In this document: positions 1 to 38,016 of the stretch, in pieces | Layout: every line of letters starts with the position of its first letter | Numbering within the stretch: position 1 is the stretch's first letter | Origin: Candidatus Moranbacteria bacterium CG_4_8_14_3_um_filter_41_13 | Lineage (GTDB): Bacteria; Patescibacteriota; Minisyncoccia; Moranbacterales; UBA1568 | DNA: 39,967 nt | Assembly (NCBI GenBank): GCA_002782305.1 | Contig: PFHN01000070.1 | Span: 1 to 39,967 of the forward strand | Direction: 5' to 3' | Translations under genes and position numbers: made by a program | Notes under the pieces: model-generated | What the model was told of the DNA's origin: nothing | Databases searched by the model: none | Seen by the model: only the letters and a program-made list of their open reading frames with translations

Positions 1-45
1 CGAAAAATTTCCTATGGATGCCGTAGAGTGAGGGAATATTTTTCG
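1..45 (+). repeat. Core hairpin of a palindromic repeat family (second copy at 37401..37446 in opposite orientation); element cut by the window edge
   Basis: CGAAAAATTTCC-N20-GGAATATTTTTCG. By hand alignment about 41 of 45 positions match the reverse complement of 37401..37446. Weaker similarity continues to about nt 90. Confidence 0.6.
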
Positions 46-258
46 TAAATAAAGAAGAGCTTTTGAGTCTGGAGCAGAGAAAAAAGATTGCTTTTGGTTC
101 TTTTCCTCTACAAGATTGGAAGGATTGCTCTGCAAAGGAGAATACAGGTCTCATACATTCTCTCTTTGATAATGCCGTCACATCGCCCTCAAAGGTTGAT
201 TGTTTCTGAGAAGTGTGTATACTACGATAGTAGTAACTCATTAATAGGATATACTCTT

Positions 259-15849: not shown

Positions 15850-15887
15850 AAAAATATCTATAAATTATAAGTGAGCAAAATGTGAAT

Positions 15888-15912
15888 AAAAAAAGCTCGC
15901 CGTACGCGAACT
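15888..15912 (-). terminator. Intrinsic terminator downstream of the VanZ-like gene
   Basis: Minus strand AGTTCGC-GTACG-GCGAGCT (one mismatch) followed by a T7 run. Confidence 0.5.
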
Positions 15913-15977
15913 CCCATAACCACTCATTGCACCTTCTCGTTCATTATAGAGCATAAAACCATTTTTGTCAACAAGAG

Positions 15978-28217: not shown

Positions 28218-29318
28218 TTATTCTTTTATCGCCCCCCCGCCCAGACACATCTCTCCATCATAAAAAACAGCAAATTGTCCTTCGGCGATGCCACTATCTT
28301 TTTCATCGAGCAAAACTTCGAAAGAATATTCATCTCGCTTAAGGAGTGTACATCCATATTCCTTGGGTCCGTGACGAAGTTTCACTGAGAGTTTCATTCC
28401 GTCAGCTGGCATTTCAAGAAACCAATTCGCATTTTCGATAACAAAACGATCGCGCGACTGTAAAACTTTTTGTCTATCACTCGCAATAAATATAGTGTTC
28501 GTTTGTGGATCTTTTTTCACCACATAAAATGGTCCGCCAGAGAGTCCAATACCTTGCCTTTGTCCGACAGTGAAGTACCAAAAACCGCTGTGTTCACCTA
28601 CTTTCTCCCCTGTTTCAAAATTCACCAAATCACCTTTTTGTTCCCCCAAATGATATTTCAAAAACTGATTGAAAGGAATTTTCCCTAGGAAACAAATTCC
28701 CTGACTATCTTTCCGTTTCGCATTCATCAAACTAAATTTCTCGGCCAGTTTTCTCACTTCTTTTTTTTCATATTTTCCTATCGGGAAAAGGGCTCTCGAA
28801 AGTTGTTTCTGAGAAAGCTGAGAGAGAAAGTAGGTTTGATCTTTGATACTATCCGGAGTCTTCTTCAGAAAAAATTTTCCATTTTTTTCTGCCACTTGGG
28901 CGTAGTGACCAGTCGCAATTTTATCAAACCCGCCCACACCCATTTCAGAAACGGAAGTGTTTCGGGCAGGTCGATTATAAATAAGATATTCATAGAAAGC
29001 ACCAAATTTGATACGTGCGTTACAGAGCATATCGGGGTTTGGGGTACGACCATTTTTCACTTCATCTATTGTGTATGCTACAACCCGCTCCCAATATTCT
29101 TTCTGAAATGGTACCACTTCAAGAGGGATATGTGCTTGGTCACATACCGCACGCACGTATGACAAATCATCCTCCCACGGACATTCGCCCAAGAAAGAAA
29201 GCTCGTCTTCAAGCCATATTTTGAGATAAAAAGCGGTGACGTCATGCCCCTCTTCTAGAAGTAAACGTAGTGCCACCGAACTATCTACTCCACCTGATAC
29301 CAGTACTGCTATTTTCAT
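28218..29318 (-). CDS. mnmA: tRNA 2-thiouridine(34) synthase
   Basis: PP-loop MKIAVLVSGGVDSSVA plus conserved Cys and the GHYA motif. Start at ATG 29318 overlaps the dus stop (ATGA). Confidence 0.93.
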   Translation of the reverse strand: MKIAVLVSGGVDSSVALRLLLEEGHDVTAFYLKIWLEDELSFLGECPWEDDLSYVRAVCDQAHIPLEVVPFQKEYWERVVAYTIDEVKNGRTPNPDMLCNARIKFGAFYEYLIYNRPARNTSVSEMGVGGFDKIATGHYAQVAEKNGKFFLKKTPDSIKDQTYFLSQLSQKQLSRALFPIGKYEKKEVRKLAEKFSLMNAKRKDSQGICFLGKIPFNQFLKYHLGEQKGDLVNFETGEKVGEHSGFWYFTVGQRQGIGLSGGPFYVVKKDPQTNTIFIASDRQKVLQSRDRFVIENANWFLEMPADGMKLSVKLRHGPKEYGCTLLKRDEYSFEVLLDEKDSGIAEGQFAVFYDGEMCLGGGAIKE

Positions 29319-30390: not shown

Positions 30391-30591
30391 GTGATTGTCG
30401 TAAGTTTATTGTTTTCTGCACTCCTGGTCTCTGTCGGTAACATTTGTGACACAAAGTGCCGTTAGAAAATGAGCGTGACGCTCGGAGCTGTTTCGGCTCT
30501 TAGAGCAGGACAGATCTTTTCTCGGCGACTTTCGTCTCAAATGTTCGACAGAGAGAAAAGGGAAAGAAAACAATAAACTTACGAAAATCAC
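30391..30591. repeat. About 200-nt rod-like imperfect palindrome with 26-nt terminal inverted repeats (MITE-like element or structured RNA)
   Basis: GTGATTGTCGTAAGTTTATTGTTTTC (30391..30416) versus GAAAACAATAAACTTACGAAAATCAC (30566..30591), 25 of 26 complementary. Interior pairs continue: TCTCTGTCG/CGACAGAGA, AACATTTG/CAAATGTT, AAAGT/ACTTT, GCCG/CGGC, AGAAAA/TTTTCT. Confidence 0.7.
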
Positions 30592-30900: not shown

Positions 30901-30962
30901 CAAAGTTTTTTAGGGAGACATTCGTCAAAATTGCTTTGACGCGGATCATCTAAAAACTTTTT
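30901..30962 (+). repeat. Palindromic intergenic repeat, copy A
   Basis: CAAAGTTTTTTAGGGAGACATTCGTCAAAATTGCTTTGACGCGGATCATCTAAAAACTTTTT. Has terminal inverted repeats and a central 7-bp hairpin. Confidence 0.85.
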
Positions 30963-36969: not shown

Positions 36970-37335
36970 ATGTCTCTCTACCAAGACCTCATCCTCGATC
37001 ACTATCGCAATCCCCGCAATCAAGGGACACTCAAAAATGCGACTCATAGCGCTGATGCAGCGAATCTTTCGTGTGGAGATAAGCTTCATATAGACATAAT
37101 CGTCAAAAATGATATTATAGAAGAAGTGAAGTTTTCTGGTTCTGGATGTGCTATTTCTCAGTCATCAGCTTCTCTTTTGACAGAGCATATCAGAAAGCAC
37201 ACAGTGAAGCAGGCCCTCTCACTTGAGCCGAAAGACATTCTCGATCTTATCTTGGTAACGCTTTCTCCAGCTCGGCTGAAATGCGGACTCCTTTCACTCG
37301 AGACCGTCAAGAAGGCGCTCAATCAAGAGAAATAA
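36970..37335 (+). CDS. sufU: SufU/IscU-like Fe-S scaffold / sulfur acceptor
   Basis: LILDHYRNPRN, CGDKLHIDI, GSGCAISQSSASL and ARLKCGLL motifs. Confidence 0.9.
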   Translation: MSLYQDLILDHYRNPRNQGTLKNATHSADAANLSCGDKLHIDIIVKNDIIEEVKFSGSGCAISQSSASLLTEHIRKHTVKQALSLEPKDILDLILVTLSPARLKCGLLSLETVKKALNQEK

Positions 37336-37342
37336 AATTGTA

Positions 37343-37505
37343 TTATACTGGGAGATATATTTTTTTCCTCACCGCAAGACTCCTCGCCTCTCTGTTTTTT
37401 CCGAAAAATTTCCTTCACTCGACCGCATCCATAGGAAATTTTTCGAAAACAGAGGACTCTTCAAACAAGTTGCGGAACCAGAAAAAAATATATCTCCCAG
37501 TATAA
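37343..37505. repeat. 163-nt imperfect palindrome with perfect 24-nt terminal inverted repeats (MITE-like element or structured RNA)
   Basis: TTATACTGGGAGATATATTTTTTT (37343..37366) is the exact reverse complement of 37482..37505. Interior pairs are CCGCAA/TTGCGG, CTCTGTTTT/AAAACAGAG and core CCGAAAAATTTCC/GGAAATTTTTCG. Confidence 0.75.
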
Positions 37506-37578
37506 TCCACAATCTCATAAAATAAAGAGAGGGTGAAGGTGAGGAGTTTTCGAAAAATAATTTAATAAAAGAAATGTT

Positions 37579-37851
37579 ATGTCACAATGGAAAGACGAAA
37601 CAAAGCCACACGGTCCAGTAACACTCGCAAATGGATGGACTGTAGAAGTCGATGCCAGTGCCTGCATTGGAGCTGCTCCTTGCACCGCTATGGCTGCCAA
37701 TACCTTTGCATTAAATGATGATGGGAAAGCAGGCATACTTGCTACTCTTGATCAAGACGATCAGGAAACCATTCTCAATGCTGCTCGTTCTTGCCCTGTC
37801 GCTGCTATTATCATCAAAGATGAAACAGGAAAAGTTATTTTTCCGGAATAA
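37579..37851 (+). CDS. Small ferredoxin, probably [3Fe-4S] type
   Basis: CIGAAPC ... CPVAAI (CxxAxxC...CP pattern). 90 aa. Confidence 0.8.
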   Translation: MSQWKDETKPHGPVTLANGWTVEVDASACIGAAPCTAMAANTFALNDDGKAGILATLDQDDQETILNAARSCPVAAIIIKDETGKVIFPE

Positions 37852-37897
37852 TCTTTGAAATAAATCTCTCTAAAATAAAAACGGATACGGAAAAGAT

Positions 37898-37964
37898 TTC
37901 AAAAGTTTTTAGATGATCCTCGCCGAAGCAATTTCGCCGAATGGCTCCCTAAAAAACATTTGAA
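37898..37964 (-). repeat. Palindromic intergenic repeat, copy C (inverted relative to A and B)
   Basis: TTCAAAAGTTTTTAGATGATCCTCGCCGAAGCAATTTCGCCGAATGGCTCCCTAAAAAACATTTGAA. Confidence 0.85.
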
Positions 37965-38016
37965 ATCTTTTCTCGCATTAGCTTCGATTATATGTTTGAT
38001 GTTCAATAAAAACACC

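Follow-up and report, generated by a model that had tools for sequence, protein, structure and literature searches.

The palindrome between sufU and the ferredoxin gene in the suf operon of this Candidatus Moranbacteria genome is probably a copy of an orphan, non-autonomous and likely selfish DNA element, MITE-like and RPE-like (RPE, Rickettsia palindromic element), that is maintained as DNA. Selection or correction would act on the hairpin or cruciform form of this DNA and not on an RNA, and any effect on sufU and ferredoxin expression would be incidental. The element belongs to an apparently undescribed repeat family of the Candidatus Moranbacteria order (CPR), and no published description of palindromic repeats in Moranbacteria or CPR was found in the literature searched. 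The window refers here to the whole 39,967-nt stretch of DNA that was analysed, which is contig C119 of the genome under study (G000; 932 kb in 121 contigs, 41% G+C). Other G-numbers denote relatives, whose genomes are samples and often fragmented.

The palindrome measured 171 nt and was composed of a family unit enclosed by copy-specific outer stems (Table 1). The initial annotation had described perfect 24-nt ends, and TTATACTGGGAGATATATTTTTTT at the left end was indeed the exact reverse complement of the right end, with pairing extending to 29 nt per arm (37339-37367 and 37481-37509, 97%, one mismatch). The core stem and loop that it had proposed were likewise recovered, as 17-nt arms at 37398-37414 and 37433-37449 (94%) around a loop of 18-20 nt, and the palindrome does separate sufU from the ferredoxin gene, being located between the stop codon of the former and the ATG of the latter. 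A genome-wide blastn search of G000 with the 24-nt ends returned two self matches only. The family unit was matched on the plus strand by R1, a covariation model built from 12 copies with 149 positions and 43 pairs, and no minus-strand match at the suf copy was among the matches listed at E ≤ 0.001. Single-strand folding of the suf copy gave −69.7 kcal/mol compared to −26 ± 3.6 kcal/mol for shuffled sequences (z = −12), and none of the 200 shuffles folded as well. The native ferredoxin leader is conserved with or without an insertion, which places the element upstream of the leader. A promoter scan for the ferredoxin gene called no promoter within or downstream of the element. Since a T-run is absent 3' of the element on the plus strand, it is not a classical terminator. 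Orthologues of sufU were present in 46 of the 50 congeners.

Table 1. Features of the suf-operon palindrome, its neighbours, and related copies and genes. Positions are those of the window unless a locus or contig is named.
Feature	Position	Strand	Description
Full palindrome, 171 nt, near-perfect	37339..37509	.	Family unit plus copy-specific outer stems
Left 24-nt outer arm, perfect	37343..37366	.	Pairs with 37482-37505; unique to the suf copy
Right 24-nt outer arm, perfect	37482..37505	.	Outward-facing TATAAT at the tip, no -35 box; not called by the promoter scan
Conserved family unit	37351..37497	+	Covariation model R1 positions 1-149, 134.5 bits, E = 1e-29
Core hairpin, stem CCGAAAAATTTCC / GGAAATTTTTCG	37401..37445	+	Apical loop of 20 nt, 37414-37433, TTCACTCGACCGCATCCATA; family consensus TC.AC.GC
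Asymmetric internal loop, 5'-arm side, conserved	37378..37386	+	Family consensus CAGACTCA; from alignments and column conservation
Asymmetric internal loop, 3'-arm side, conserved	37457..37470	+	Family consensus CTTCAGACAAG; from alignments and column conservation
sufU, 121 aa, upstream neighbour	36970..37335	+	ORF list, translation; stop codon at 37335
Ferredoxin gene, 90 aa, downstream neighbour	37579..37851	+	ORF list, translation; ATG at 37579
Native ferredoxin leader AAAATAATTTAATAAAAGAAATGTT	37554..37578	+	Kept in relatives with and without insertion (spacer comparison)
Second copy, right 143 nt of 227 nt	1..143	-	Left part is the end of C52 (2326-2477); unit orientation opposite
mnmA, uninterrupted, usual length	28227..29318	-	G000
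mnmA with unit	L065:1102-2322 (G043); L073:825-2045 (G013)		Insertion after the GHYAQV motif
Weak Y1_Tnp ORFs (IS200/RAYT-type), ~230 aa	G006:C3:668-901; G054:C2:107605-107856; G185:C37, C45		32-35 bits

The core had also been reported at the window start in the opposite orientation, and positions 1-45 did match it at 41 of 45 nt (blastn-short E = 1e-7 against the 0.93-Mb genome), with the weaker similarity past the core extending to nt 88 (nhmmer E = 5e-6). The last 68 nt of contig C52 overlapped exactly with window 1-68. When this upstream DNA was joined (C52:2326-2477 plus window 69-143), the similarity between the suf copy and the window-start copy covered 133 nt at 75% identity (E = 3e-17). 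The joined copy of 227 nt folded at −86.9 kcal/mol and was matched by R1 at C119:1-45(-) and C52:2383-2477(-). The 24-nt termini of the suf copy were found to be absent from the window-start copy upon upstream extension via C52; the outer stems of the two copies differ, and the window-start copy carries instead a perfect 19-nt outer repeat of its own, AGAGGAAAAGAACCAAAAG / CTTTTGGTTCTTTTCCTCT. Copies 95-99% identical to it were found at the tails of C24 and C97, at the head of C44 and around a gap at C84:2353-2420. Overall, G000 carries at least five copies including the suf copy, the others being broken across contig ends. The contig ends (tails of C52, C24 and C97, head of C44) or the N-run (C84) fall inside near-identical copies, which makes the repeat a direct cause of fragmentation in the G000 assembly. 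The proposal of a dispersed family, as opposed to a local accident, had understated the case, with at least four further copies in G000 and well over 100 across the order.

A local accident or an assembly artefact such as a fold-back chimera, with the match at the window start being due to A/T-rich chance, was considered, as the metagenome assembly is fragmented (121 contigs) and palindromes can be assembly artefacts. This reading was refuted by the orthologous copy in the independent assembly of G006 (86% identity) and by more than 100 full-length copies in independent assemblies, with E-values of 1e-17 to 1e-40. In addition, the element is interior to a 40-kb contig, and the probability left to an artefact is negligible.

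A BLAST search with the element showed copies in two congeners only, G006 and G017. With R1, full-length units (~150 nt) were identified in 27 of the 50 congeneric genomes. The highest copy numbers in the genus were 29 in G045, 18 in G047 and 16 in G054, and the closest relative, G049, had no family copies (range among congeners 0-29). Across the order, with the best 20 candidates per genome scored, 34 of the 151 genomes had full-length units, representing 21 of the 76 genera; under the same cap, ~145 genomes of the same class but outside the order had none. The zero matches in these genomes of other orders also served as a specificity control for R1. True copies scored between 72 and 174 bits on one strand, and the score on the other strand never exceeded 39 bits. 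Judged by these genome searches, the family is specific to the CPR order containing Candidatus Moranbacteria. Four near-identical copies each were found in G003 and G047; together with those of G000, they indicate that the family has multiplied recently in these genomes.

The alignment of 12 copies showed a common unit of ~150 nt with the consensus ends CCAAAAG...CTTTTGG, in which the stems differed among copies by paired changes and the unpaired motifs were conserved. The unit is a five-helix hairpin with a length of 135-155 nt. Sequence conservation was concentrated in a T-run/A-run helix and in three unpaired places, namely CAGACTCA in the 5' arm, CTTCAGACAAG opposite to it in the 3' arm and TC.AC.GC in the apical loop, an asymmetric arrangement. 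For 33 copies aligned to R1, an alignment that leans towards the model structure, standard pairs occupied 92.4% of the stem cells compared to at most 57% when the partners were slid by 1-3 columns, and changes on both sides were found in 37 of the 43 pairs. Double-change cells in the same copies numbered 290 against 79 ± 8 in shuffles, a statistic that overstates significance because copies within and between related genomes are non-independent; the slid partners and the zero matches outside the order are the more meaningful controls. In the MAFFT alignment of the first 12 copies, double changes were already present in 21 of 44 pairs. The 1320 stem cells comprised 1195 Watson-Crick, 19 G:T, 34 A:C and 72 other combinations, and one-sided changes were far rarer than double changes. 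The stems are strictly Watson-Crick with no G·U excess.

Palindromy continued past the model ends for 6 bp or more, with no more than one mismatch, in 18 of the 61 copies, against 0 of 61 in the shifted control and ~1 expected by permutation. Part of this outer palindromy was a further shared layer, GTTCAACAA...TTGTTGAAC, to which many seemingly specific flanks belong. Outer stems differed between near-identical units, such as L175 and L176 in G047. Small hairpins were also nested inside the units L019, L022 and L023 of G017 and L016-L018 of G006, with CCTGTCTGCCGACAGGCAGG in the internal loop and a 37-nt hairpin, CCGCCCGCAACGCATTCGCGTAGCGATTCGGGCAGGC, in the apical loop; L023 had an additional 20-nt hairpin inside the first nested hairpin.

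The family could also be a structured non-coding RNA, in the form of a multi-copy sRNA gene or of a cis-acting element of mRNAs; its conserved loops would then be functional motifs of the RNA, and the suf copy would regulate sufU or ferredoxin expression. The conserved asymmetric loops, the constant length, the strand-specific R1 scores and the strong covariation are in line with this, and between two convergent genes of G006 a copy takes the place of an ordinary terminator. In each of the first 12 copies, the strand complementary to the model strand also had a fold better by 8-23 kcal/mol, which is weak evidence for an RNA as these copies share ancestry. In a structured RNA, one would normally expect G·U to be tolerated and A·C to be avoided, but in the stems of this family G·U pairs were outnumbered by A·C and one-sided changes were rare. 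Orientation relative to co-directional flanking genes was random (11 same, 11 opposite), and the gene contexts of 49 copies were 16 convergent, 11 divergent and 22 tandem; a bias of 12:4 in gene orientation seen in an earlier smaller sample was gone with 49 copies. For replication-strand order, G104 looked suggestive and G047 was mixed. The suf copy was nowhere near any gathering score in Rfam, and six typical copies had no Rfam match at E ≤ 0.1. A conserved promoter or terminator was likewise absent from the family. Moreover, the unit is inverted at the orthologous sufU-ferredoxin site, mnmA is translated through an in-frame copy, and the distribution in the order is patchy (34 of 151 genomes, best 20 candidates per genome scored). 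The lack of G·U bias, the random orientation, the inverted orthologous unit and the lack of an Rfam match argue for DNA rather than RNA, and the RNA reading was set aside as distinctly unlikely on the Rfam result, the pair composition and the vanished orientation bias.

Elsewhere in the window, at ~15885-15970 on the minus strand, a tiny conserved unit common to G006 was observed, with TTGACA-17-TATAAT, ~35 nt and then a terminator, GGGAGTTCGC...GCGAGCTTTTTTT. It is a candidate small RNA or leader by its sequence, and in G006 a family unit is positioned directly upstream of it.

The comparison of sufU-ferredoxin spacers showed that the spacer was 20-60 nt without the element in most congeners and 40 nt in G049. 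In other congeners it was filled by long palindromes of at least three unrelated families. The short spacer in relatives and the unrelated palindromes elsewhere show that this site has been colonised repeatedly and that the element does not belong to the operon design. One of the other families is represented in the window by a 201-nt palindrome at 30391-30591, also present at C84:129-313, with the core TTTCTTTCTCCGG...GGAAAGAAAGGGAA. Its family fills the spacer in G047, G014, G021, G018 and G011 and probably also in G017, where the contig ends inside the palindrome. In four other congeners, the spacer is occupied by a third family (TTTCCTTCCTCCAAGAATTCTC...). A short palindromic family of 63-83 nt occurs at window 37890-37972 with the ends CAAAAGTTTTTAG...CTAAAAACTTTTG, and the initial annotation listed further sites of it at 30901, 36857 and 38362. 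The terminal motif of this short family, CAAAAG...CTTTTG, is common to the 150-nt family. The extra spacer segment AAAATAAAGAGAGGGTGAAGGTGAGGAGTTTTCGAAAAAT (window 37519-37553) is similar to the left-hand flank of the unrelated palindrome that G047 has between sufU and ferredoxin, which hints at an earlier insertion at this site, since deleted.

One clean empty site was found, where G047 carries a 222-nt insert and G000 (C92) reads TGTAA|ATGTGC. The insert in G047 includes its palindromic outer stems. This pair led to the rejection of a pre-existing palindrome or an inverted target duplication as the origin of the outer stems, since the stems belong to the insert; mnmA and C83 could be read either way. 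At the same pair, the one clean empty site, direct repeats did not exceed 1-2 nt. The TA target-site duplication that had been suggested for the suf copy was not upheld, as the palindrome runs through the TA bases and no duplication was seen at the clean filled/empty pair. The units were mostly located between genes, in either orientation. Overall, the identity of the copies, together with the filled and empty orthologous sites between species, points to mobility.

In G043 and G013, a unit was inserted in frame into mnmA, adding ~55 codons with the frame kept open (Table 1). The two mnmA units were 68% identical and kept 39 and 36 of the 43 pairs, with six compensatory changes, and such paired changes in diverged units indicate that pairing was maintained after insertion. 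The native mnmA site, CAAGTGGCAGAAAAAAATGG, resembles the 3' arm of the element (CAAGTGG...AAAAAAT).

At the orthologous sufU-ferredoxin site in G006, the unit was 86% identical to the suf copy and faced the other way with respect to the genes, which run on the plus strand in G000 and on the minus strand in G006, the unit being on the plus strand in both. Among paralogues, the asymmetric outer layer CCTCTACAAGATTGG accompanied the inner unit in either orientation, one way in C119 and C97 and the other way in C44 and in L017 of G006. These flips, both the paralogous ones and the one between G000 and G006, suggest recombination between the arms as far as sequence comparison can indicate, and independent insertions in opposite orientations are the alternative. 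In addition, C83:4385-4500 of G000, which is orthologous to the filled sites L018 of G006 and L021 of G017, holds a decayed remnant, TTCAATTGAAC followed by CTCAAAAGCACATTTTTTC, the arrangement of which suggests an internal deletion of an old copy.

RPEs are palindromic repeats of ~100-150 bp that are found in intergenic positions and in frame within protein genes (PMC10969869). The Moranbacteria element resembles them in being palindromic and dispersed in a small, host-dependent genome, and its in-frame insertion of ~55 codons in mnmA is of the kind by which RPEs are recognised. It differs in belonging to an unrelated phylum, in having one intragenic site compared to dozens in Rickettsia, and in being defined by structure, covarying stems and conserved asymmetric loops. 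RPEs are not known to be linked to a transposase. By this comparison, the element is an analogue of RPEs and not a member.

Prokaryotic MITEs include the Correia/NEMIS and ERIC/IRU elements and the QMITEs of Coxiella (PMC10969869, PMC2229807, PMC5896051). The element shares with them a small size, a non-coding nature and a multi-copy, dispersed occurrence (171-227 nt; five or more copies in G000, as many as 29 in congeners), as well as terminal inverted repeats (29-nt arms at 97% in the suf copy, 19-nt perfect arms in the window-start copy). Like MITEs, it lies mainly in intergenic DNA, may occur within operons and would give stable hairpins in transcripts. Unlike MITEs, it showed no target-site duplication at the one clean empty site, and no cognate IS was found when the fragmented assemblies of G000, G017, G045 and G047 were searched for Y1_Tnp, TnpB and IS110. 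Moreover, the whole Moranbacteria element is a hairpin, not just its termini, and its outer stems vary among near-identical copies. On these likenesses, its behaviour is most likely closest to that of RPEs and other prokaryotic MITEs (PMC10969869, PMC2229807).

REP, BIME and REPIN elements are mobilised by RAYT (Y1) transposases (PMC3733652). Like the element, they are palindromes located outside genes and presumably serve as substrates in the form of hairpin DNA, and weak Y1_Tnp-like ORFs were found in a few genomes. However, the unit of ~150 nt compares with 20-40 nt for REP elements, its consensus lacks the GTAG/CGTC head, and a RAYT (Y1) gene is absent from the genomes with the most copies.

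Integron attC sites are recognised by their structure, with covarying stems and asymmetric unpaired bases, and their active form is a one-strand hairpin that has R''/R' boxes (RYYYAAC / GTTRRRY) at its foot. The way in which structure is conserved is shared with the Moranbacteria element, which may, by analogy, work likewise. However, the family consensus ends CCAAAAG...CTTTTGG show no R''/R' boxes, and the copies are dispersed over contigs and loci with no cassette arrays. The element is not a member of the integron attC family.

The same comparison bears on whether the copies are functional host sites rather than selfish DNA, with hairpins or cruciforms serving in attC-like recombination, as replication or priming signals, or in nucleoid-protein binding. 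As in integron attC, structure is kept here while the sequence varies, with Watson-Crick stems and asymmetric unpaired motifs, and pairing was kept in situ in the mnmA copies. Against a host role, the copies are dispersed with no arrays, their number varies from 0 to 29 among congeners with none in the closest relative G049, near-identical copies within genomes point to recent bursts, one insertion lies within a coding gene, and no attC-type R-box is evident in the family consensus. A host function was judged very unlikely on this balance, and the MITE- and RPE-like element is the reading followed below.

A search for mobilising genes with Y1_Tnp (PF01797) gave no match in G000, G017, G045, G047 and G169. 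The weak Y1-like ORFs of other genomes (Table 1) were uncorrelated with family copy number and were missing from the highest-copy genomes. TnpB and IS110 domains were absent from the fragmented assemblies of G000, G017, G045 and G047. Small GIY-YIG genes numbered 3-8 per genome, and no unit was located within 1.5 kb of any of 21 of them. Overall, Y1/RAYT, TnpB, IS110 and GIY-YIG genes were rejected as mobilisers, as they showed no association with the family. The nested mini-hairpins were also considered as REP units of the Y1-like genes, and no such motif was found near those genes. SbcD (TIGR00619) had no match in G000, G017, G045 and G047, and the control search was positive in 13 of 14 reference genomes. 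SbcD is the nuclease subunit of SbcCD, a complex that attacks long hairpins, and its apparent absence may explain the tolerance of long palindromes.

For the MITE- and RPE-like element, a putative structure-specific enzyme would need the hairpin in order to copy it, or alternatively the arms would correct each other by template switching or hairpin-templated repair, and the apparent lack of SbcCD would let long palindromes persist. At the suf locus, the element has inserted into a sufU-ferredoxin spacer that is normally 20-60 nt long. As a side effect in the operon, the transcript hairpin of −70 kcal/mol may act as a processing site, a stability barrier or a partial roadblock. A more specific proposal, which we regard as possible yet unlikely, is that the family is copied and kept palindromic by a structure-driven, transposase-free DNA pathway. 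In genomes lacking SbcCD, this could be template-switching during replication or repair templated by the hairpin; alternatively, a putative enzyme could act on hairpin DNA in single-stranded form, reading the bubble CAGACTCA/CTTCAGACAAG together with the apical loop. Either of the two routes, if true, would explain the differing outer stems on near-identical units and the flipped inner unit, and would represent a novel way for bacterial repeats to move.

These repeats occupy a measurable share of otherwise extremely compact, sub-megabase CPR genomes, and they sit within operons and in at least one conserved enzyme gene. They break metagenome assemblies, as at least five contig ends of G000 and one gap fall inside copies, and confusion with riboswitches, sRNAs or terminators is possible. 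Their recognition by a model would allow better annotation of Moranbacteria and would provide strain-level markers. Finally, the family poses the question of how a 150-nt hairpin can propagate and keep its pairing over order-level timescales without a recognisable transposase.
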